Source: an uncultured Verrucomicrobiae bacterium (GTDB lineage: Bacteria > Verrucomicrobiota > Verrucomicrobiia > Chthoniobacterales > Terrimicrobiaceae). Taken from it: DNA of 64,000 nt. The stretch is from NCBI GenBank assembly GCA_963706955.1, contig CAVPOC010000005.1, positions 1 to 64,000 of the forward strand. The letters run 5' to 3'. Each line of letters opens with the position of its first letter. Within the stretch, counting starts at the first letter, position 1. Below the pieces are notes generated by a model. The model saw only the letters and a list, made by a program, of their open reading frames with translations, was not told the origin of the DNA and searched no databases. The translations under genes were made by a program, and so were the position numbers. Of the stretch, positions 50,494 through 63,804 are shown piece by piece.

Positions 50494-50570
50494 CCGAGCG
50501 GCTTCTCGACTCAACGCGTTTTTTGCCGTGCATTCTTGACGGCGAGGTTGCCGGACCGTACGCTTAGCTC

Positions 50571-51967
50571 ATGCCCCTACTCAGACCCAGATCCCACTTT
50601 TTACCCTTCCCCCCGCCTCGCTATGCAGGCGCCTCCCGAGACGCTCGCTTATGTCGCGGCACTCAATCCTCCCGGAAGTAAGCTCCACGATGCCATCCTT
50701 GTGATCGATGTGGATCCGGCATCGCCGAGCTATGGGAAGCGCATCGGGCAAACCGTTCTTCCCCATGCCGGAGACGAATTGCACCACTTCGGGTGGAATG
50801 CCTGCAGTTCGGCACTTTGTCCCTACGCGCCGCATCCACACGTCGAACGCCGCTATCTTGTCGTGCCGGGAATCCGCTCTTCGCGCATCTACGTGTTGGA
50901 TACCAAGCCGGATCCTCGCAATCCCTCGATCGTAAAGATCATCCAACCTGAGGAGGTTCTTGCTCGAACCGGCTATTCGCGTCCGCATACCGTTCACTGC
51001 GGACCCGAGGGCATCTACGTCAGCGCGCTCGGCTCACCGAGTGGAGATGGTCCGGGCGGCATCTTCCTGCTGGATCACTTTAGCTTTGATGTCCTGGGAA
51101 AATGGGAAATGGACCGTGGACCCCAGTATCTCGGCTACGATTTTTGGTGGCATCTGACCCAGGACACGCTCTTGACCAGCGAATGGGGGACACCGAACCA
51201 GATCGAGAACGGCGTCATTCCCGAAGAGCTTCTGCAAAGCAAATACGGCCACCAGTTGCACGTTTGGGACCTGCGCAAGAGACGGCACGTTCAGGCTCTT
51301 GACCTGGGAAAAGAGCATCAAATGGTTCTTGAGATGCGCCCGGCGCACGACCCGACGAAAACCTACGGGTTTGTCGGCGTGGTTGTTTCGCTTGAAAGAT
51401 CTCAGTGCTTCGGTTTGGCTTTGGCATCGCCAAAACGGCAACTGGCAAATTGAAAAAATCATCGAAATCCCGGCGGAGCCGGCAGACGCCGATCAGTTGC
51501 CCGCGCTGCTCAAGGGGTTCAATGCGGTTCCCCCTTTAGTTACCGACATCAATCTCTCTCTCGATGATCGCTTTCTCTACGTCTCCTGCTGGGGGACCGG
51601 AGAGATGCTGCAATATGACGTTTCCGATCCGTTCAATCCCAAAAAGACCGGCTCGGTGCAGATTGGTGGAATTGTGCGGCAAACACCGCATCCGGCAAGA
51701 CCCGAGCAGCCGTTGCAAGGTGGGCCGCAAATGGTCGAAGTAAGCCGCGATGGAAAACGCATCTACTTCACCAATTCTCTCTACGCGGCCTGGGATGAGC
51801 AGTTCTATCCCACGGGCGTGGGAAGTTGGATGGCAAAGCTCGATGTCAACTCTGAAGGTGGCATCAGCTTCGATAAGAGATTCTTCCTTCAGTCGGATGA
51901 CTATCGTGTTCATCAAGTCCGCCTGGAGGGTGGCGACTCCTCGTCCGACTCTTACTGCTATCCGTGA
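50571..51967 (+). CDS. Selenium-binding protein SBP56 family (methanethiol oxidase homolog), indels
   Basis: PDPTFYPS, DELHHFGWNACSS, GYDFWW, GGPQMVEVSRDG, GGDSSSDSYC. Confidence 0.93.
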
Positions 51968-52652: not shown

Positions 52653-55600
52653 TCATCGGACATCCACGACCGGTTGGTAAGTCGGTTGTGGCGCGGGCAC
52701 TTTTCGTGGCTTAGAGATTCTGCGAATCAGCACATAGAAGACCGGCGTGAGAAAGACGCCGAAAATAGTCACCCCCAACATTCCCGAGAACACAGCTGTG
52801 CCCAGCGTCTGTCTCATCTCGGCGCCGGCGCCAGTTCCGATTACGAGCGGAATCACTCCGGCAATGAAAGCAAACGAAGTCATCAGAATCGGGCGCAGTC
52901 GGAGCTTGCAGGCATCGATTACGGCTGAAACCGGATCTTTGCCCTCGTCCTCGATCTGTTTGGCGTACTCAACGATAAGGATCGCGTTCTTACAGGCGAG
53001 CCCGACGAGGACGACGAAGCCAATCTGGGTGAATATATTGTTGTCCATCCCCCGCAATAACACTCCTGCCAGGGACGAGAGCAGACACATCGGGACAATG
53101 AGAATAATAGCAAAAGGCAGGGCCCAGCTCTCATATTGCGCCGCAAGGGTCAGGAACACGAAGAGGACGCAAAGCGGGAAAATGTACAGGGCGGTGTTTC
53201 CTGCCAGAATTTGTTGAAACGCCATGTCGGTCCATTCAAAACCAAAGCCCGGCGGAAGTAATTGGCGAGACAACTGCTCCATAATGCTAATAGCGTCACC
53301 GGAACTATAGCCAGGGCTGCTACTTCCTGAGATCGCCGATGCGGTATAGAGATTATAGCGCGTGATAAAGGCCGGACCGTAAGTCTCTTTGATCGATGCC
53401 ATGGTACTCAACGGGACCATCTGTCCGGCGACGTTCCGCGTCTTCAGCTTGAGAATATCGGCTGGGGTGACGCGGAATTTGCTGTCCGCTTGCACGTTCA
53501 CCTGGAAGGAGCGTCCCAGAAACGTAAAGTCGTTCACATACGCGGATCCTAAGTAGATTTGCAGCGCGTCAAAGATGTTGTTGAGCGGCACATCCATGCT
53601 TTTCGCTTTCGAGCGATCGACGTCGACATAGATCTCGGGAGTTTCCGCGCGAAAGCCGGAGAACATGCCAACCAGCTCAGGTCGCTTTTCCCCAGCATCG
53701 ACCAGACTTTGCGAGACCGCCTCGAGTTGTTTGAAATTGCCGCCGCGACGATCCTGGACCATCAAGTTGAAACCGCCGGTGCTGCCCACGCCCTGAATCG
53801 GAGGCGGGCCGAAGGCCAGGATCAGAGCCTCCGGGATGGTCGAAAATTTCTTCCTGAGATCACCGACAATCGCATCGGCGGTAAGGTTGGGACCCTTTCG
53901 CTCGTGAAACTCATCCAAGATCACGAAGAGCGAAGCGACGTTTGACGTCGAGGTGCCGGTGAGGATTGAAAATCCGTTGATAATAAGGGTCGTCTTAACG
54001 CCCGAAGTCTCTTTGATCATCGCCAATGCTTTGGCGGTGACCGCTTGGGTTCGCTCGAGCGAGGCGCCGTCGGGAAGTTGACAGCCAACCAGCAGGTATC
54101 CTTGATCCTGCTGAGGAACAAAGCCGGTTGGAGTGATCCTAAATCCGTAGCCAGTCAAGGCGAGCAAACCGGCGTAGAGGATCATGACGATCACGACCTT
54201 GCGCACCAGGCCGGCCACTGATCGTCCGTACCTCTCGATCATCCAATCGAAGCCGCGGTTAAATCCCCTGAAAAACCAGCCGAAGGTCGCATTAAAGAAT
54301 CGCGTTAGGATGTCCTTCTGCTCTCCATGCGGCTTCAAGAGTATCACACTCATCGCCGGGCTCATTGTCAGCGAGTTGAATGCCGAGATGATTGTCGAGA
54401 CCGCTATGGTAAGAGCAAACTGACGGAAGAATTCACCGGAGATTCCGGTCATAAATGCCGTCGGGATGAACACCGCGGACAAGACCAAGGCGACCGCTAT
54501 CACAGCTCCACCGACTTCATTCATGGCCTGACGGGCGGCGTCGCGTGGCGATAGTCCAAGACTAAGCTTATGTTCGATCGCTTCGACGACGACGATCGCA
54601 TCATCGACCACGATCCCGATCGCAAGAACAAGACCGAAAAGCGAGATTGTGTTAAGTGAAAATCCGAAAGCTGCCATGGCCGCAAACGTCCCGATAAGAG
54701 AAACCGGCACGGCGATAAGCGGGATGATTGCAGCCCGCCACGTTTGCAGAAATAACATCACGACGATCGCGACGAGGAGGACAGCTTCAATCAGGGTGTG
54801 CTGAACCGCAGAGATCGACTCGCTGACGAAGACGGTCGTATCATAGACGATCCTGTAATCGACGCCCTTCGGGAAATCCTTCTTAAGCCTCTCCATCGTC
54901 TTGCGAATCGCCTCGGCGGTGGAAAGCGCATTGCTGCCAGGCAACTGATAGACGGCCAAGGTTGCCGTGGGCTTGTCGTCGAGCGTAGATTTAACCGCAT
55001 AAGACTTGGCGCCGATCTCGACCGAGCCGAGTTCACTCAGCCGGACAACTTCACCTCGCTCGCCGCGTTTGACGACAATGCGGGAGAATTCCTGCGGATC
55101 GATCAAGCGGCCCTGGGCATTGACGACCAGCTGAAATTCGGTGCCCTGGGGAGCCGGCTGCTGGCCAACTATGCCAGCGGCAACTTGCCTGTTCTGTTCC
55201 TGCACGGCCGCGACTACGTCGGAGGCGGTCAGCCCGAGCGATGCCAGTTTGTTCGGATCCAACCAGATCCGCATCGAGTACTCGGAGCCGAAGATGTTGA
55301 TTGCGCCGACGCCTTCGACTCGTGCCAATGTGTCCTTGACTTGAAGAATCGCGTAGTTGTTGAGATAGAGCTCGTCGCGCGAATTGTCTGGGGAGATCAA
55401 ATTCACGCACAGGATCATCGAGGCAGACTGCTTGTTGACGGAAACACCCGTGCGTCGAACCTCCTCGGGTAAGATAGGCAGGGCAAGGTTGACGCGGTTC
55501 TGCACAAGCACCTGTGCCGTATCGAGGTCGGTGCCCAGCTTGAAGGTAATCGTCAACGCATACGAACCGTCGCTCGCTGACTGCGAGGACATGTAGAGCA

Positions 55601-55829
55601 TGTTCTCGACGCCGTTAACCTGCTGTTCAATGGGCGCCGCGATCGTTTCGGCGATCGTCTTGGCATTTGCTCCGGGAAAGCTCGCCGAAACCTGGACCGT
55701 TGGCGGAACAATATCTGGATACTGAGCAATCGGCAAAGTCAGCAAAGCAATGCCGCCAACGATCGTGATGACCAGGGAAAGAACCGTCGCAAAGATCGGA
55801 CGGTCGATAAAGAACTGACTGATATTCAC
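52653..55829 (-). CDS. RND efflux permease (HAE1 family)
   Basis: FFIDRPIFA, GIVVDDAIVVVE, RLRPILMTS; 1058 aa. Confidence 0.96.
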   Translation of the reverse strand: MNISQFFIDRPIFATVLSLVITIVGGIALLTLPIAQYPDIVPPTVQVSASFPGANAKTIAETIAAPIEQQVNGVENMLYMSSQSASDGSYALTITFKLGTDLDTAQVLVQNRVNLALPILPEEVRRTGVSVNKQSASMILCVNLISPDNSRDELYLNNYAILQVKDTLARVEGVGAINIFGSEYSMRIWLDPNKLASLGLTASDVVAAVQEQNRQVAAGIVGQQPAPQGTEFQLVVNAQGRLIDPQEFSRIVVKRGERGEVVRLSELGSVEIGAKSYAVKSTLDDKPTATLAVYQLPGSNALSTAEAIRKTMERLKKDFPKGVDYRIVYDTTVFVSESISAVQHTLIEAVLLVAIVVMLFLQTWRAAIIPLIAVPVSLIGTFAAMAAFGFSLNTISLFGLVLAIGIVVDDAIVVVEAIEHKLSLGLSPRDAARQAMNEVGGAVIAVALVLSAVFIPTAFMTGISGEFFRQFALTIAVSTIISAFNSLTMSPAMSVILLKPHGEQKDILTRFFNATFGWFFRGFNRGFDWMIERYGRSVAGLVRKVVIVMILYAGLLALTGYGFRITPTGFVPQQDQGYLLVGCQLPDGASLERTQAVTAKALAMIKETSGVKTTLIINGFSILTGTSTSNVASLFVILDEFHERKGPNLTADAIVGDLRKKFSTIPEALILAFGPPPIQGVGSTGGFNLMVQDRRGGNFKQLEAVSQSLVDAGEKRPELVGMFSGFRAETPEIYVDVDRSKAKSMDVPLNNIFDALQIYLGSAYVNDFTFLGRSFQVNVQADSKFRVTPADILKLKTRNVAGQMVPLSTMASIKETYGPAFITRYNLYTASAISGSSSPGYSSGDAISIMEQLSRQLLPPGFGFEWTDMAFQQILAGNTALYIFPLCVLFVFLTLAAQYESWALPFAIILIVPMCLLSSLAGVLLRGMDNNIFTQIGFVVLVGLACKNAILIVEYAKQIEDEGKDPVSAVIDACKLRLRPILMTSFAFIAGVIPLVIGTGAGAEMRQTLGTAVFSGMLGVTIFGVFLTPVFYVLIRRISKPRKVPAPQPTYQPVVDVR

Positions 55830-55832
55830 GTT

Positions 55833-57044
55833 CTATTTCGCAGCCTGGGTCGTCGCTGCAGCCGGCGTGGCAGAATCCGCAGGCTTGGGATCTACCTTCT
55901 CACCGGGGCGCACCTTCAGCAGTCCGTCCACCACAACGGTCTCACCGACTTGCACTCCGCTCTTGACCACCTGCATGGTGTCGAAAAGCGTTCCAAGTTC
56001 GACCGGTTGAAACTCAGCCGCATTCTCCTTGTTGACGACGACGACATACTTCTGGCCTTGATCGGACGCCACACAACGCTCCGGCACCAGAATGGCGTTG
56101 TATGGCAATCCCGCGGGAATGCGTACCCGAACGAAGAGTCCTGGCCCAAGCAGACCATTTTCGAAGTCGAAGACGCCTCGGATCCGGATGGTGCCCGTCG
56201 ATGGGTCGACACGATTGTCGAGGAAGTCGATGTAGCCGGTATGCGGAAAGCCTGTTTCGTCCTGTAAAGACAACTCGATCGGGATCTTCACTTCGTCCGC
56301 ATCTTCGGGCCCCTTTTTCTTACTCTGGTAGTAGCGGACGTAACGGAGCAATGAACGCTCATCGACATCCGCATAGGCGTAAACTGGATTCGTCGAGACG
56401 ATCGTCGTCAATGGATCCTTGCCATCGGCGGAGACAAGGTTTCCGACGGTGACATTCGCGAGTCCCGCCCGGCCATCAATCGGTGCTGTCACGGTGCAGA
56501 ACTCCAGATTTAGCTTAGCCCTTTCCAGGGCTGCGCGGGCGGACTGGAAAGCTCCGGTGGCCTGCTGAAAGGTTGCGGCGCGCTGATCGAAATCTCCCGC
56601 AGCCGTGACTCCTTTGTCCCGCAGTTGTCGTGCCCGGTCAAAATCGGCGGAGGCCAGCTTCAAGGCGGAATCAGCTTTGTCGAGCTCCGCCTTGGCTTGC
56701 TCGTAGTCCGCCTGATATGGTCGCGGGTCGATGATGAAGAGCGGCTGGCCTTTCTTGACGAGGTCGCCGTCAACGAATTTGACCTCCGTAATGTAGCCGC
56801 TCACGCGAGGTCGGACGTCGACCGTTCCCATCGGAGCGAGGCGGCCGGTATATTCGTCCCAATCTTGCACTTGCTTTTCAACGGCCTGGGTGACGGTGAC
56901 GATTGGCGGTGGCAGCTCCAGCGCCTCCTGCTTCTTACAAGCGCTTACGGCCGCAAGCGCCAGCCAAAAGAGTAAGGTGGTCCGCAAAGGCAAACGGAAT
57001 GCGGCGAAGGGCGAGCGATCCGAAAGAGTGTTCGAGCGCACCAT
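55833..57044 (-). CDS. RND efflux membrane fusion lipoprotein
   Basis: Lipobox VSAC, RPRVSGY, APIDG, DPSTGTI. Confidence 0.95.
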   Translation of the reverse strand: MVRSNTLSDRSPFAAFRLPLRTTLLFWLALAAVSACKKQEALELPPPIVTVTQAVEKQVQDWDEYTGRLAPMGTVDVRPRVSGYITEVKFVDGDLVKKGQPLFIIDPRPYQADYEQAKAELDKADSALKLASADFDRARQLRDKGVTAAGDFDQRAATFQQATGAFQSARAALERAKLNLEFCTVTAPIDGRAGLANVTVGNLVSADGKDPLTTIVSTNPVYAYADVDERSLLRYVRYYQSKKKGPEDADEVKIPIELSLQDETGFPHTGYIDFLDNRVDPSTGTIRIRGVFDFENGLLGPGLFVRVRIPAGLPYNAILVPERCVASDQGQKYVVVVNKENAAEFQPVELGTLFDTMQVVKSGVQVGETVVVDGLLKVRPGEKVDPKPADSATPAAATTQAAK

Positions 57045-57166: not shown

Positions 57167-57682
57167 ATGACTCGAAAGGAAGCAATCATTGTAGGCGCGG
57201 CCAGCCTCTCCGCTCTGGCGATGGCCGCACAATCCGGGCGGGCCGAAGAGGCGGCGGAACAAAATCCCGAAGTAACGAAAATCTGGGCGCTTCTTAAGGC
57301 ACACGACGAAGCCATGGCGAACCATGATCTTGGTGGCGTCATGAAATGTCTGACCGAAAAGGCCGCTATCATGGGCACCGGCCCCGGCGAGTTTTGGGTC
57401 GGGCCGGAGGAGATCAAAATAGCTTATGAACATTTCTTTGAGACCTTTGACAAGGGCGCGCAGGATTTTCAGTATCAGTTCAGGATCGGTGGCGTCGGCA
57501 CCGACATGGGTTGGCTGATGGCGTCCGGGAATGTAGCCGCTAAGAAGGATGGCAAGGAGTTGACCTTTCCCTTGAATATTTCCCTGACAGTCGCAAAGAA
57601 ATCGGAAGAATGGCGCATCGCCGCCATGCACTTCTCCACGTTGACCGGAGACATGGGAAGCCACGAGAAAAAGAGCAGTTGA
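57167..57682 (+). CDS. Exported SnoaL/NTF2-like protein
   Basis: Signal-like N-terminus, GTGPGE.W.G..EI, WRIAAMHFS. Confidence 0.85.
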   Translation: MTRKEAIIVGAASLSALAMAAQSGRAEEAAEQNPEVTKIWALLKAHDEAMANHDLGGVMKCLTEKAAIMGTGPGEFWVGPEEIKIAYEHFFETFDKGAQDFQYQFRIGGVGTDMGWLMASGNVAAKKDGKELTFPLNISLTVAKKSEEWRIAAMHFSTLTGDMGSHEKKSS

Positions 57683-57691
57683 TCAAACGTT

Positions 57692-58009
57692 ATGAACCCT
57701 GAAGCATCGAATGAGGGAAACGTGCAGGCGGAGAACCAGGAGTCGTTGAATCGGCGATTGTTCTTGCGGAGCCTCGGAAAGTGGTCGGGTGCGGCGGCGA
57801 TTGCGGCTGTCGCTGGAGGAGTTTGGATCGCCTCTTCGCCAAAGGCAGCTGCGGGCTGGTTAAATCGAAGAGGAGTAGTTCGGGGCGGAGGTTGGATCAA
57901 TGGCGGAGGTTGGGTCAATCGAGCAGGAGGATGGATTAATGGTGGTGGTGGTGGTGGTTGGATCAATCGGCGTGTCGGCGGCGGCGGCGGCTGGATCAAT
58001 CGCTGGTAA
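57692..58009 (+). CDS. Tat-signal Gly-rich W-x-N repeat protein, putative RiPP precursor
   Basis: NRRLFL twin-arginine motif, hydrophobic region, AAA site; 51-aa core with WLN, WIN, WVN, WIN, WIN, WIN. Confidence 0.8.
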   Translation: MNPEASNEGNVQAENQESLNRRLFLRSLGKWSGAAAIAAVAGGVWIASSPKAAAGWLNRRGVVRGGGWINGGGWVNRAGGWINGGGGGGWINRRVGGGGGWINRW

Positions 58010-58027: not shown

Positions 58028-58870
58028 ATGCCTCAGGAAGCTGAGATCTTATCCTTCCGGGAGGCTGACTCGAAAGAGAACTCGGACATCGGTCCGTTTG
58101 TAGTCGTCGTTAGAGATTCTCAGCAGATGGGCATATGGCTGCGCGATCGTTCTCCGGCGCTTCAATGGATCCAGGTCGAGGGAGTTTTAAAGGATGACGA
58201 CGTCTGGCGCCTTGCTGCCGAAGACCCTGGCGAAGTGCCGCTCGATGTCATCCTGATCGACCCGGGCAGAGAGTTCGCGGACCTCTATCGGTTGGTGGAC
58301 GTGCGTTCGGCGCGCGATGTTCGCGTCAGCATGCCCGCACGACCCGGATTTCTCAAGGCAGTCCGACTGGCTGCCTCTCTTGGCCTGCCGGTGCGACTCC
58401 TTCCCCAGCAGCCAACAGCCGATGTCTTAGCTGAGCTTCAGGAAGCCCTGACATTTTATCTGCGCAATCCGCTGGTGGAAGCTCCCATCGAATTTTTCCA
58501 TTCGGCCCTGGCCTGGCTCAGAGGGGCACCGACAGGTTCGCTTTGGAGAGTTCTTGAAGAAGATCCCTCGATCTACCAACGCAAGGCGATCAGCACGGCG
58601 TGGGACTCGCCGCAACTCTCGGACCTCCCCATCGATCCTACACAAGACTTTGGCTCCCTATTCTTAGAGCGGCTCACACAGCAGGGCGGCGAATGTGCCA
58701 CCTGTCGCTGGCGTGATTTCTGCGCAGGCTACTTTAAGTGGCCGACTCCTGAATATTCTTGCACGGGCGTTAAACTGCTCTTTTCGAATCTGCTTGCGGC
58801 CGTCAAAGAGATCGAGGACGACTTCCGGACCTTTGCAGCGCCAACTGCTGAACTGCAATCCTCATTATGA
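58028..58870 (+). CDS. Radical-SAM-associated protein with C-terminal SPASM-like Cys motif
   Basis: CATCRWRDFCAGY...C near the C-terminus; no CxxxCxxC; ATGA overlap with the rSAM gene. Confidence 0.7.
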   Translation: MPQEAEILSFREADSKENSDIGPFVVVVRDSQQMGIWLRDRSPALQWIQVEGVLKDDDVWRLAAEDPGEVPLDVILIDPGREFADLYRLVDVRSARDVRVSMPARPGFLKAVRLAASLGLPVRLLPQQPTADVLAELQEALTFYLRNPLVEAPIEFFHSALAWLRGAPTGSLWRVLEEDPSIYQRKAISTAWDSPQLSDLPIDPTQDFGSLFLERLTQQGGECATCRWRDFCAGYFKWPTPEYSCTGVKLLFSNLLAAVKEIEDDFRTFAAPTAELQSSL

Positions 58871-60058
58871 ATCGTCGCGTTTTCAGCGTCATTCTTCTTC
58901 CAACGTCAGATTGCAATGTCGCCTGCGAATACTGCTTTGAGCGAAAGGAGAAGCATCGACTTTCAACGAACCTGCTGCCATTGCTGACAACTCGCCTGCT
59001 CGATCATCTCGAGAACGAGGGAATCACGGAATGCGAAGTTTACTGGCAAGGCGGAGAGGCGATGATCATGGGACCGGAGTGGTTCGTCGCAGCCGGGCGG
59101 CTTATGGATCGCGCAGCCGCGGAACGAGGACGTCACTTCATCCACTATCTTCAGACCAACCTCATCAGCTATACCGAATCCTGGAACGAAGTCTTGCGAA
59201 CGATGTTCCAGGGGTCGTTGGGAACTTCCATGGACTATCCCAACCATCACCGGAAGTTGTTCAACGGCGGCCCCGAGGCCTATACGCGTTTGTGGACACG
59301 GAAGCTTAGAGCCGCGCAAGCCGCCGGGATCAAGGTCGGCGTCATCGCCGTGCTTCACCAGGGGAGTTTGGATGCGGGTGCCGGAGGACTTCTATCGCTA
59401 TTTCACGGAGGAACTCGGGCTGACTGACTTCCAAGTCAACACGCCATTTCCAGGTGGTCCCGCCGGGGAAGTTGAAGGCGCTTTTCAGCTCGAGACAAGC
59501 AAGTTGGCGAGCTTCCTTGCGAGGTTGTTCGATATCTGGATGGAGCGCGGTTTCGATGTCGGAGTGTCGCTTGGTCCGTTTGACGCATTGATTGACCACT
59601 TTACCGGCAGGCCGGCGCGATTGCCGTGTATTTGGAAAGAGAATTGTTCCAATCAATTCATCTCGATTGATTCCAAAGGGACGGTCGCTCAATGCGATTG
59701 TTGGGTAACGAGCTATCCCGAAAGCTTCTTCGGCAATATCTTTCGAGAGCCCGACCTTACCCGAATGCTAAGGACCAGCCCGGCGCGGCGCCAGTTCGTC
59801 GAGCGTCCCAAGCACCTCGTTGAACACGAAGATTGCCTCTCGTGTCGTTACCTTTCGATCTGCCATGGTGGCTGCCCCGTGCGGACATACACTGCCTTAG
59901 GGACGATGATGGCTAAGGATCCCTACTGCGAAGTTTACAAAGCGGTCTTCGGACGAGCGGAGGCTCACGGGCGAACGATAGCCGGGCGGCGCCTCCACAC
60001 TTTGCAAAAATCCGAATCACTCCCGTTCTCTTTTCACTCTGAACCCAAACTGCTGTGA
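58867..60058 (+). CDS. Radical SAM/SPASM peptide maturase (one indel near 59375)
   Basis: CNVACEYC, WQGGE, LQTN, SMD; SPASM CIWKENC..G.VAQC..CLSC.YLSICHGGCP..YC. Confidence 0.9.
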
Positions 60059-60215: not shown

Positions 60216-60509
60216 ATGTCGGCCTTCGTCATCTTCGATGTTGAGATTCGCGACCCGGAGCGTTATCAAGACTTCATGCGCCAAGTGAAACCTGCGCTCG
60301 AGGCCGCTGGCGCAAAGTACCTCGCTCGCGGAGGCGCTCACAAGGTGTATGAGGGTGATTGGTCTCCCAGAAGGATCGTCTTGCTTGAGTTCCCGTCCGT
60401 AGCCGCTTGGGAGAGTTTCTACAACGGGCCTACCTACCAGGGCCTTAAAGCCATCCGTGACGAATGCAGCTCTGCACGGTTGGTCAGCGTCGAAGGGCTA
60501 GCGCCCTAA
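60216..60509 (+). CDS. DUF1330 protein (gene cassette)
   Basis: YLARGG...EGDW.P.RIVLLEFPS..A...FY....YQ. Confidence 0.92.
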   Translation: MSAFVIFDVEIRDPERYQDFMRQVKPALEAAGAKYLARGGAHKVYEGDWSPRRIVLLEFPSVAAWESFYNGPTYQGLKAIRDECSSARLVSVEGLAP

Positions 60510-60533
60510 GGTGCCGAGCATGTGCCGCCAGAC

Positions 60534-60610
60534 GCCCAACCCTCCATCGAGCGGACAGCTTCCGGCATGCTGCGCCTGCCTCCAGCTGCCGCTCATGTCG
60601 AACGTCAGAT
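60534..60610 (+). mobile_element. attC site 1 (R' mutated)
   Basis: GCCCAAC..CATCGAGCGGACAGCT...AGCTGCCGCTCATG..GTCAGAT imperfect palindrome. Confidence 0.75.
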
Positions 60611-60627
60611 GACTTCTCGGACTCCAA

Positions 60628-60921
60628 ATGAACGCGCTGCAGAGACTTCAGGATTGTTATTCGGCGCAATGCGAAGGTGATCGGGACCACCAGCAGGGCG
60701 TTCGCATCGAGTCACTGGACAATCCGGGATGGGCGCTCGACATCGACTTGGCTGACACGGCTTTGGCCGACAAACCTTTCACGGAGGTCAAGCGCGGCTG
60801 CGAAGACACGACCGATTGGCTCATTTGCTTTCTTCCCGATGGCAAATTCATGGGAAGATGTGGTCCGCAGAAGCTTCAGGAAATGATCGGGGTGTTTTTG
60901 ACGTGGGCGGAAGAATCTTAG
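60628..60921 (+). CDS. Immunity protein 53 family (gene cassette)
   Basis: QC.GD..H..GV.I.SLDNPGW..DIDL..T, DW..C, CGP..L. Confidence 0.85.
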   Translation: MNALQRLQDCYSAQCEGDRDHQQGVRIESLDNPGWALDIDLADTALADKPFTEVKRGCEDTTDWLICFLPDGKFMGRCGPQKLQEMIGVFLTWAEES

Positions 60922-60950
60922 ATCATGTCGATCGTGTTGCCACGCCAGTC

Positions 60951-61073
60951 ATCTCACCAGGCGATGGAGCGAACGGCCACTCGCCGCGCGTTCGCGCTTG
61001 GCATGACTCGTACGCCCCCACTGCGGCTGACGTTCGCTCCCGGTAGCCGTCGCTCATCTTATTCTCATTAGCG
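60951..61073 (+). mobile_element. attC site 2 (both cores mutated)
   Basis: ATCTCAC..GATGGAGCGAACGGC...GCCGTCGCTCATC..ATTAGCG. Confidence 0.7.
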
Positions 61074-61105
61074 CGCACAATGTCATGCAATCGTAGGAGA
61101 GTCAT

Positions 61106-61774
61106 ATGAGGAAACTTATTGCGTCCACATTTACATCCCTGGACGGTGTCATGCAGGCACCAGGAGGACCGACCGAAGATCCAACCGGAAATTTTACGTT
61201 AGGTGGTTGGTTGTTCGCTTTCGGGGACGCAGGGGTGGATCTTTCTGCGTCAGGTTTCGATGGTAAAGATCGAGAGGTTGTCCTCGGTCGCAAAACCTAC
61301 GAAATATTCGAGGCATATTGGCCTTACCAATCAGAGGATCATCCGATTGCGAGGACGCTCAATGCGGCAAAAAAGCATGTGGCGTCCCGCACTTTGAAGT
61401 CATTGCAATGGAACAATTCGTCGGTCCTTGGCGGTGACATCGTTTCAGCCATAACCGCACTCAAGGTTCAGCCCGGACTCGACCTTCAAATCATTGGCAG
61501 CGGCAATCTCATTCAGACGCTACAAGCCGCATCGCTCATTGACGAATACAACATATGGACCTACCCGGTAGTTCTTGGCCGTGGAAAGCGATTGTTTGAA
61601 GATGGTGCAAGGCCATGTGCACTGCGACTCGTGGCTTCGAAGGTTTCAACAACTGGCGTTGTGATGAGCACCTATGTTCCAGCCGGAGATATTCCGCTTG
61701 GTTCGCTTAGCCAGGCCGAGCCAAGCGCGAAGGAATTGACCCGACGCGCCAAGATGGCTACAGATGTGACGTGA
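61106..61774 (+). CDS. Dihydrofolate reductase/RibD C-terminal family protein (gene cassette)
   Basis: SLDGVMQAPGG, LGRKTYE, GSGNLIQTL, DEY..W.YPVVLG.GKRLF. Confidence 0.92.
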   Translation: MRKLIASTFTSLDGVMQAPGGPTEDPTGNFTLGGWLFAFGDAGVDLSASGFDGKDREVVLGRKTYEIFEAYWPYQSEDHPIARTLNAAKKHVASRTLKSLQWNNSSVLGGDIVSAITALKVQPGLDLQIIGSGNLIQTLQAASLIDEYNIWTYPVVLGRGKRLFEDGARPCALRLVASKVSTTGVVMSTYVPAGDIPLGSLSQAEPSAKELTRRAKMATDVT

Positions 61775-62481: not shown

Positions 62482-63804
62482 CTATGGTGCTGGATGAGAC
62501 CTAACGAATTTGCTAAACCAAATGCCTGTCGGCTCCATGATCAATTCCTTAGTCTCGCGATTGAGACTTGTCAGGCCGAAATTAGCTGCGTAACCCTCCG
62601 CCCACTCATAATTGTCGACGAGCGTCCAAGGGAAGTATCCACGCACGTCCACGCCGTCTGACATTGCGCGACGCATTTGGTTTACGTGCTCGCGATAGTA
62701 ACGGATCTTCTTTTGTTCACTCTGCGTCCCGATGCCGTTCTCGGAGACGACGATCGGTTTGCCATAGCGCTTGAAGACGGTGGCCAGACTTTCATAAAAG
62801 CCTTCCGGGTTGATTTCCCATCCGTTCTGGGTGTAATTCGAGCTTTGCTCTCCATGGCCGCGAAGAATGAAGCGCAGCGGAGTCGCATCTTGGGAGTAGT
62901 AATAGTTTAGGCCAATGATGTCAGTGACGTCGGCTACCTGATCGAGGTGATCCCAGTTCTGATGCATCATCATGTTGTAAACCATCCCAGCGGGATCTGC
63001 GAAATACTTCCGTCTCCAATTTGGAATCGAATAGATTCCCATGATAATGGCGTCTGGCCGGTCTTGGCGGATGATGGCGGCAGCGTCGCGATACATCCGC
63101 ACACTGATCTCTGTCGCCTTTTTTAACTTGAACGGAGTCAGCAATAGGCCGGGAGGCCAATGCCCGCCAAAATAGCCGATGTAAAGGTCGCCATTAGGCT
63201 CGTTCTGTGGAACATAAACTCGGACATAAGGGGAAAGCGCGCCGACCATCTTTTCCACATAGGCGCGCCATGCTGTTTCCACATCGGGATGCAGGAAATT
63301 TGAGCGAGCCTTCTTTTTGGTGTCGTACAACCAAGAGGGAAAGGTAAAATGCCACAAAGTGACAATCGGCTCGATCCCGGCGGCCTTCAATTTACGAGCC
63401 ATCCGCACGTATTGCTGGATTGCCGCTTCATTATAGACGCCCTGTTTTGGCTCAACCCGCGCCCACTCGATGCCAAAGCGGTAATGGTTAACTCCCAGCT
63501 CGCGGAGAGTTCTCAAGTCCCGGTCGAAGTGCGTCCATGAGAAGGTCGCGTCGTCACCGCGTGGCGGGATATGGCCTTCCTCTGCATAAACATCCCAGTC
63601 GGTCTTGAAGTAGTAAGGCGAACCAGGCGTGACCCCCCGATCCTCATTCTGGTAGCTAGCGGTCGAGGTGCCCCACCAGAACTTCCCTGTGTTCACAGGC
63701 GCCGCTATCTCACGCTTCTTGTAGGGCTTCGGTGGCAAGATACAGCCAGAAAAACCTACAAGGATGACGGCCACGCACAGAAGGTGGTGCTTGGAGATAT
63801 TCAT
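62482..63804 (-). CDS. Glycoside hydrolase family 1, predicted lipoprotein
   Basis: WGTSTASYQNE, YRFGIEWARV, NEP acid/base, SENG nucleophile, DNYEWAEG; lipobox FSGC. Confidence 0.93.
   Translation of the reverse strand: MNISKHHLLCVAVILVGFSGCILPPKPYKKREIAAPVNTGKFWWGTSTASYQNEDRGVTPGSPYYFKTDWDVYAEEGHIPPRGDDATFSWTHFDRDLRTLRELGVNHYRFGIEWARVEPKQGVYNEAAIQQYVRMARKLKAAGIEPIVTLWHFTFPSWLYDTKKKARSNFLHPDVETAWRAYVEKMVGALSPYVRVYVPQNEPNGDLYIGYFGGHWPPGLLLTPFKLKKATEISVRMYRDAAAIIRQDRPDAIIMGIYSIPNWRRKYFADPAGMVYNMMMHQNWDHLDQVADVTDIIGLNYYYSQDATPLRFILRGHGEQSSNYTQNGWEINPEGFYESLATVFKRYGKPIVVSENGIGTQSEQKKIRYYREHVNQMRRAMSDGVDVRGYFPWTLVDNYEWAEGYAANFGLTSLNRETKELIMEPTGIWFSKFVRSHPAP

Follow-up and report, generated by a model that had tools for sequence, protein, structure and literature searches.

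A predicted twin-arginine signal peptide as candidate leader of a W-x-N repeat precursor, encoded beside radical SAM and pseudo-radical-SAM proteins in an uncultured Verrucomicrobiae bacterium

The analysed window, a stretch of 64,000 nucleotides on the forward strand of contig CAVPOC010000005.1 from an uncultured Verrucomicrobiae bacterium (GCA_963706955.1), carries a cassette in which neighbourhood clustering and profile searches revealed the gene order SnoaL-like protein, precursor peptide, 280-aa protein and radical SAM/SPASM enzyme (Table 1). The extra base that splits the last gene was absent from the closest relative (L004) and from the short-read contigs of both runs covering the position (two of the four runs), so the enzyme gene is probably intact (396 aa) and the frameshift a likely assembly error; a broken maturase gene was rejected because both covering runs miss the base. 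Short contigs from the four RNA runs lay over the SnoaL-like gene and the precursor, some bridging both, which is a kind of evidence that cannot show transcription. No promoter stood out (2 sites versus 1.4 expected).

Table 1 Features of the cassette, in positions of the 64,000-nucleotide window.
Feature	Position	Strand	Basis
SnoaL/NTF2-like protein with export signal; predicted periplasmic partner of the W-x-N core	57167..57682	+	Pfam SnoaL_3 E=1e-12, NTF2 fold
Precursor peptide, 105 aa	57692..58009	+	Translated ORF, homologue search
Acidic n-region, residues 1-20, variable in sequence	57692..57751	+	Median length 20 aa and net charge -5 in the family
Twin-arginine motif RRLFL, residues 21-25	57752..57766	+	Conservation in 293 homologues
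GKWS, residues 29-32, predicted docking element for the maturation machinery within the signal peptide	57776..57787	+	Conservation, common to unrelated cores
h-region and c-region up to the predicted signal peptidase I site A52-A53-A54|G55	57788..57853	+	Charge-free stretch, -3/-1 residues
Predicted mature core, 51 aa, six W-x-N motifs	57854..58006	+	Translation; Trp-Asn spacing across the family
Pseudo-radical-SAM/SPASM protein, 280 aa, predicted leader reader	58028..58870	+	Radical-SAM fold, no CxxxCxxC
Radical SAM/SPASM maturase, split here by one extra base at 59383	58867..60058	+	Both halves match radical SAM and SPASM models

The cassette recurs beyond this genome. In 46 well-flanked loci (2.5 kb on both sides), the SnoaL-like gene accompanied the precursor in 33, the 280-aa gene in 30 and the enzyme gene in 32; all three were present in 26 loci and none in five. 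Neither a protease nor a transporter was conserved in the cassette across the loci compared, and no conserved outer-membrane exit was found near it. In Competibacteraceae the cassette is split over several loci with its parts kept: the 280-aa gene lies elsewhere in all five genomes, behind another precursor in four of them, and precursor genes number 2, 4 and 5 in three genomes. An RND efflux pump and adaptor (52653-57044, minus strand) diverge from the cassette at a distance of 122 bases, a synteny seen in close relatives only. We rejected the pump as a cassette member, as the pumps near the Competibacteraceae loci are at most 41-47% identical to it, below the 55-59% of paralogues within this genome. 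Elsewhere in the window, a methanethiol-oxidase-like (selenium-binding) gene runs over two frames at 50536-51967 (+), possibly another assembly indel, and genes for DUF1330, Imm53 immunity and RibD-C proteins (60216-61774, +) lie between the cassette and a glycosidase-like gene (62482-63804) that in relatives comes straight after the cassette.

The family has no name in Pfam or NCBIfam. A protein search with the precursor returned 1,280 clusters and a profile of distant members 1,587 (the best 120 examined in each), and by sequence similarity the family spans at least five phyla, with more than 1,200 protein clusters. A genome scan covering 54 of 64 parts of the collection found at least 69 loci, in Verrucomicrobiota, Competibacteraceae, Thiodictyon, Pyrinomonadaceae, Blastocatellales, Vulcanimicrobiota and one Desulfobacterales record. 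Among the matches listed, the closest were Verrucomicrobiae records at 92% identity. The gene was present in 14 of 18 genomes of the same genus and in none of 72 genomes from other genera of the same taxonomic family, nor in any of 300 further genomes sampled across the phylum. The enzyme tree groups by phylum, with Vulcanimicrobiota nested among Verrucomicrobiota, and no enzyme relatives were found in viral contigs or, at E 1e-40, on plasmids. One homologue (P0429) carries a GrrA-type name in its source record, and another (L063) is a truncated precursor at a contig start. At high score the ESM Atlas returned unnamed clusters only; its named neighbours, all below 0.8 and usable as leads only, were a methylamine dehydrogenase light chain, a Rieske Tat signal and a CXXX-repeat radical SAM target. 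According to passages of PMC11499958, the catalogues of Nguyen 2020 and Sugiyama 2022 hold about 3,900 putative triceptide pathways, and these may already include this family.

The first-pass annotation had described a leader ending exactly before a 51-aa core, and translation of 57692-58009 (+) confirmed this layout. The twin-arginine motif region reads S18-L-N-R21-R22-L-F-L25, an uncharged stretch extends from W31 to A47, S-S-P-K-A-A-A54 follows, and G55-W56 comes directly after A54, with W56 opening the first W-x-N motif. The core contains 21 Gly, 7 Arg and no Asp or Glu, and has an unmodified monoisotopic mass of 5,327.7. Variation of the repeat codons had been taken as a mark of selection on the protein. 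This stands for Gly (3 codons), Arg (5 codons) and the x position, which differ between repeats, but not for Asn, which is AAT in all six. Protein-level selection is better seen in the arginine codons of homologues, where both twin arginines are kept in 61 of 61 genes through 5 and 6 different codons. The motif spacing also held across the family, with Asn at +2 of 1,896 of the 1,989 core Trp residues. In L124, L143, L144, L155, L173 and others, Pro/Arg-rich spacers replace the Gly-rich ones, giving strongly cationic Trp/Arg cores.

To examine the leader, 293 of 299 unique homologues were aligned by anchoring on the downstream WS and not on RR (three of the six left out have RR by eye; three are truncated or frameshifted). 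The RRxFL motif proposed earlier, for which loss of RR among homologues had been set as a refutation, was conserved: RR occurs in 291 of 293 (KR and RH are the exceptions), F is kept in 290 and L in 292, and the position between F and RR varies freely. The 14 residues after WS were free of charge in 264 of 293, with a median best 13-aa hydropathy of 1.99. A [AVSTI]-x-A pattern ended 0-4 residues before the first core Trp in 263 of 293, compared to a mean of 140 and a maximum of 159 after shuffling; position -2 was free and a Pro lay upstream in 211 of the 263. Small residues at -3 and -1, a free -2 position and an upstream Pro are expected of signal peptidase I sites. A simple in-house Tat rule, applied to six-frame ATG ORFs and to the family, was passed by 15 of 7,333 genome ORFs (4-8 with shuffled N-termini) versus 232 of 293 family members, the other 61 failing it; the signal features thus exceed what chance would give. 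Against the Tat reading count the long, acidic n-region and the curated Tat model TIGR01409, which matched 6 of 28 members at E up to 1 (best E=5e-4) and left this precursor unmatched.

Part of the leader conservation reflects selection bias, because most homologue sets were gathered with leader-containing queries. We also collected 80 metagenome loci by enzyme instead of by peptide, all at least 75% identical and thus close kin; an intact precursor was found in 54, with RR in 54 of 54 (52 by pattern, two by eye), and the others comprised one frameshifted precursor, one false candidate and 24 loci without a precursor, mostly for want of upstream sequence. A leader-only profile, which itself contains RR, recovered RR in 111 of 111 new proteins. 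In a five-member clade a lipobox-like cysteine motif replaces the signal peptidase I site, and independently, in genome G658, the h-region of two Tyr-rich precursors ends in a canonical lipobox. Such switches would make sense only for a genuine signal peptide and support that reading. The SnoaL-like protein of the same operon always has an export-like N-terminus, with RR in 21, RK in 10 (including this window) and a Sec- or lipoprotein-like form in 12 of 43, the last group having two or three cysteines in the mature part. Its signal type thus drifts while the precursor keeps RR, an indication that for the precursor it matters how export happens as well as where the product ends up. A tatC gene scored above cut-off in this genome and in 14 of 15 carrier genomes, a weak support because tatC is common. 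Lipobox-type precursor paralogues without enzyme genes nearby were also seen at L002:1160-1468, L003:7001-7309 and L005:7001-7309; the source genomes of L002 and L003 have a full cassette elsewhere, and L005, titled Woesebacteria, nests among Verrucomicrobiota sequences and may be mis-binned.

Overall, the comparative data are well in accord with the earlier proposal of a Tat signal, with signal peptidase I standing in for a RiPP-specific protease and cross-linking in the cytoplasm. Our main reading, to which we assign a probability of roughly 0.6, is that the precursor is cross-linked in the cytoplasm by the neighbouring enzyme, exported by Tat and freed by signal peptidase I at AAA|G, the signal peptide probably doubling as the recognition leader.

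The first-pass annotation overlooked a second near-invariant leader element, GKWS, which by sequence comparison lies outside the Tat motif and tracks the pseudo-radical-SAM partner. Its G is kept in 281 of 293 and its K in 275 of 293 homologues, W and S are invariant in an alignment of 28 distant members, and the GKWS leader segment is also found on unrelated Cys-rich and Tyr-rich cores. The 280-aa partner matched no Pfam or NCBIfam family; its structure model (pLDDT 89.7) had as best folds the cyclophane synthase ChlB (9gm3, Z 12.6, rmsd 4.0, 250 aligned) and anSME (Z 11.7). CxxxCxxC is absent in 23 aligned members, and four C-terminal cysteines (C223, C226, C232, C245) are invariant. There are 462 relatives at the 50% cluster level. 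In P0301, P0323 and L213:3593-6010 the pseudo-enzyme is fused to DUF483, in some also to a methyltransferase domain.

Leader and pseudo-enzyme occurred together. A degenerate DNA pattern for the leader lacked specificity, matching 54 of 401 genomes with a similar outcome in controls, and a profile search took its place. Among the 401 genomes of the phylum of genome G462, the leader-only profile matched strongly (E <1e-12) in 11, eight matches at 5e-5 or weaker being set aside, and the pseudo-enzyme was strong in 11, with one more at E 6e-4 set aside. Co-occurrence amounted to 10 of 11 versus 1 of 390 genomes, a count that is partly circular and drawn from related, non-independent genomes; as the profile contained leaders of those genomes, the useful finding is that the other 390 were nearly devoid of strong matches. 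The exceptions fit contig ends, with a SnoaL gene and a precursor at the end in G611 and a SnoaL gene at the end in G585. When the leader-only search was opened to proteins of up to 2,000 aa, the best 120 were all 75-183 aa long.

Under the same leader, the cores were mostly of the W-x-N type, with a Cys/Gly/Arg repeat in G833, CRVWG repeats in G612, Tyr-rich lipoprotein-type cores in G658 and an additional His-rich core in G545. The SnoaL gene was present in 2 of 2 W-x-N-type genomes tested versus 0 of 3 others, and its structural fold search returned generic NTF2 proteins only. We read these distributions, in few, partly related and incomplete genomes, as the pseudo-enzyme going with the leader and SnoaL with the W-x-N core. 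The modularity argument draws on G833, G612 and G658, the last with peptide and pseudo-enzyme on different contigs. At L214:3333-6265 (G833), a leader three residues shorter and a long acidic spacer precede the Cys/Gly/Arg repeats, after which come a different radical SAM enzyme and the pseudo-enzyme. L216:3581-8531 (G612) has two CRVWG-repeat precursors, a radical SAM enzyme, a pseudo-enzyme and a double-domain radical SAM protein. In G658, L259:7833-8887 holds the two Tyr-rich precursors with leader and lipobox, and on another contig (L217:3432-8799) a distant pseudo-enzyme is accompanied by two radical SAM genes and two additional genes of unknown kind.

Given the co-occurrence, the pseudo-enzyme likely reads the leader. 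An alternative explanation is that the active enzyme itself does so and that the pseudo-enzyme is a scaffold, electron-transfer or cluster-carrying subunit. Judging by its entry titles, ChlB was crystallised with its own leader bound and no separate element, so here, too, the leader may be read by the active enzyme; the pseudo-enzyme keeps its four-Cys site, and four of the six long homologues examined are fusions with radical SAM domains. Against this, the leader in G833 stays with a pseudo-enzyme 34-40% identical to this one and to that of G633, while the adjacent active enzyme becomes one of only 24% identity, and neither the family enzyme nor SnoaL was found in that genome. We consider this alternative a serious one that is nevertheless somewhat doubtful. 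For the pseudo-enzyme as reader, we tentatively propose, well short of conviction, a modular Tat-coupled maturation platform: one short segment would be RiPP leader and Tat signal at once, its reader and private export-proofreading chaperone would be a radical-SAM-fold protein without catalytic activity, and a range of active enzymes and of unrelated cores (W-x-N, Cys-rich, Tyr-rich lipoproteins) would plug in, so that macrocycles reach the periplasm or surface without a dedicated transporter or protease.

In the active enzyme, CxxxCxxC and nine SPASM-region cysteines are invariant in 40 orthologues. The anSME-type cysteines, which we take to be the ligands of both auxiliary clusters, are kept together with one more, as is the Asp after C276. 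Five intact orthologues scored 119-138 on the NCBIfam model for anSME (cut-off 349), 123-134 on DynA (450), 67-92 on GrrM (310), 91-110 on DarE (650) and up to 75 on AmcB (425); membership of the GrrA/GrrM, Dyn, Dar, Amc and anSME families was rejected, all scores lying far below the cut-offs. The best bits per model were about 137 for anSME, about 133 for DynA, 119 for DarW, 110 for DarE and 83 for GrrM, and both ChlB and GrrM are without the first-auxiliary-cluster cysteines that this enzyme keeps. Since it scores higher with anSME, DynA and DarW than with GrrM and keeps these cysteines, its chemistry may differ. Export could then proceed as proposed with a darobactin-type ether link, or with oxidation or epimerisation at Asn, as the ranking of models and the anSME-type cysteine set with its Asp would allow. 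We regard such other chemistry as unlikely, as strict spacing with a free x is the triceptide pattern in passages of PMC11499958 and PMC11002830. XncB and OscB form Trp-to-Asn-C-beta bonds on i,i+2 motifs in a part of the latter, and xenorceptide A2 contains a WVN ring, as excerpted from 10.1101/2024.12.16.628070.

The main reading, with the pseudo-enzyme as leader reader, can be laid out in five steps. Tat proofreading chaperones (TorD, DmsD and NapD families) bind the twin-arginine signal in the cytoplasm until maturation is complete. In a first step, about which we are evenly divided, the pseudo-radical-SAM protein would bind RRxFL-xx-LGKWS as the recognition element and probably mask the arginines until modification is done; most likely, it would present the core to the active enzyme and delay export. 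The active enzyme would then very probably modify the W-x-N motifs, with somewhat better than even odds that the bond runs from the Trp ring to the Asn C-beta in each motif, for up to six rings at -2 Da each. Export of the rigidified peptide by Tat is quite likely, because macrocycles pass Sec poorly. Macrocyclic peptides are described as poor Sec substrates in passages of PMC5686179 and 10.1101/2024.03.18.585515; the former also reports that engineered Tat display of lanthipeptides failed in preliminary trials, which counts against this step. Signal peptidase I would free the intact 51-aa core, or Lgt and signal peptidase II would anchor it in the lipobox variants, and the exported SnoaL-like protein would bind or further process the ringed core.

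The biological role is the weakest step. We tentatively suggest that the product is a cationic, multivalent peptide working within the envelope of the producer itself, as its near-core presence in the genus, the similar cores across phyla and the lipid-anchored variants favour such action over a diffusible antibiotic. A diffusible antibacterial, with the SnoaL-like protein as periplasmic immunity factor, would suit the cationic Trp/Arg-rich cores, the nearest enzyme models, which make BamA-targeting antibiotics, and the finding of SnoaL only with W-x-N cores among the five genomes tested. It appears rather unlikely, however, for a family whose cores are alike across phyla, which is present in most genomes of the genus, has no conserved outer-membrane exit and was not found on plasmids or viral contigs.

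The suggestion of the first-pass annotation that RR or R residues permit further cleavage into small units fared poorly. Exported cores might be cut at Arg into active units of one or two rings, given that Arg follows most W-x-N motifs and that the repeat number ranges from 1 to 16. This is improbable, as the cassette has no conserved protease, RR follows only 547 and GG 251 of the 1,896 motifs, some cores are Arg-dense throughout and the lipobox forms imply a tethered chain with its repeats intact. Very unlikely, finally, is that RRxFL is only an enzyme-docking helix and that the peptide remains cytoplasmic or takes some other way out: GKWS, which lies outside the Tat motif, roughly equals RR in conservation, and the n-region and TIGR01409 scores agree with such a view, but the ordered RR, h-region and -3/-1 site far above shuffles, the two independent lipobox substitutions, the export signal of the SnoaL partner and the cassette's lack of a conserved transporter or protease all argue against it.

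If the export proposal is right, a ring-forming system that is naturally routed through Tat would reveal how modification is timed ahead of export in the cell, and a pseudo-radical-SAM protein would for the first time have a defined function. The signal-peptide RiPPs in the papers covered use Sec, which suits small modifications and not bulky rings, and the display of macrocycles in the periplasm or on the cell surface would benefit from a portable leader, about 35 residues long, able both to recruit a cyclising enzyme and to export the product. With a large family and a cultured carrier, Verrucomicrobium sp. BvORR034 (L007), the system is directly testable. Searches of open-access full text turned up no description of a natural RiPP leader with a Tat signal, nor of a pseudo-radical-SAM protein that reads a leader, and on text search the word Tat was absent from PMC12452194, PMC13056109, PMC10885120 and PMC8939145.

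Among known systems, Tat proofreading chaperones have a role like that proposed for the pseudo-enzyme, with an unrelated fold and with cofactor enzymes and not peptides as substrates; binding by the pseudo-enzyme is predicted. An outward likeness exists to GrrA/GrrM (OscA/OscB; TIGR04260/TIGR04261), a Gly-rich repeated W-x-N core beside a radical SAM/SPASM gene, and 13 of 28 family members match TIGR04260 at E up to 1. This precursor, however, reaches 10.4 bits on that model (cut-off 31), through its core only, and the enzyme 83 bits (67-92 in the five intact orthologues) on TIGR04261 against a cut-off of 310. The same genome has a true GrrA/GrrM pair (G000:C3:411108-412680; L289:1495-3067) at 45.1 and 435.5 bits, over both cut-offs. 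That GrrA has, by eye, a Sec-like hydrophobic N-terminus without RR and then a separate leader stretch; that GrrM is 24% identical to the cassette enzyme and without the first-auxiliary-cluster cysteines; and the pair is without a pseudo-enzyme, the fold partner occurring in this genome only in the cassette as far as examined. By these sequence comparisons the system would work like a triceptide system but lies outside the Grr family, and its precursor is not alone in having a signal-like N-terminus.

With triceptides the cassette shares the repeated W-x-N motifs (six here) and a linked radical SAM/SPASM enzyme with invariant CxxxCxxC, found at 32 of 46 loci. Xenorceptides (XyeB), darobactin (DarE) and dynobactin have aromatic-to-C-beta cross-links made by anSME-like SPASM enzymes, as predicted here; xenorceptide clusters have a Gly-Gly leader and a dedicated protease and transporter in passages of 10.1101/2024.12.16.628070, whereas the cassette is without these. 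Sec- and lipoprotein-signal RiPPs are already known, as is a Tat-secreted unmodified halocin precursor. Bufferins and lipidated DAG-RiPPs, as portrayed in parts of 10.1101/2024.03.18.585515 and PMC13056109, likewise replace dedicated RiPP transport and proteolysis with housekeeping export and signal peptidase, and have signal peptidase I and II forms within one family, as here; they use Sec and MNIO enzymes, unlike the Tat-type signal and radical SAM enzyme of this precursor. The bufferin signal peptide is dispensable for modification in an excerpt of the former source, whereas the leader here is nearly frozen and directly abuts the core. The halocin C8 precursor ProC8 resembles this one as a Tat-secreted precursor cleaved to a free peptide, but is archaeal, 283 aa long and without a radical SAM modification in the passages of 10.64898/2026.07.27.741052 that describe it. 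With the PADLOC models (2023 library) nothing was found beyond viperin, at E 4e-4 on a common motif, and the core has no HxS repeats. The HXS antiphage system (HxsA/B/C/D) shares a signal-peptide-bearing cationic repeat substrate, radical SAM maturation and periplasmic action, and differs in its HxS repeats, a peptidoglycan-binding domain, two enzymes with intact clusters and, within the same passages of PMC13128918, no native Tat signal. By analogy, HXS would offer a precedent for the biological role that is worth testing.
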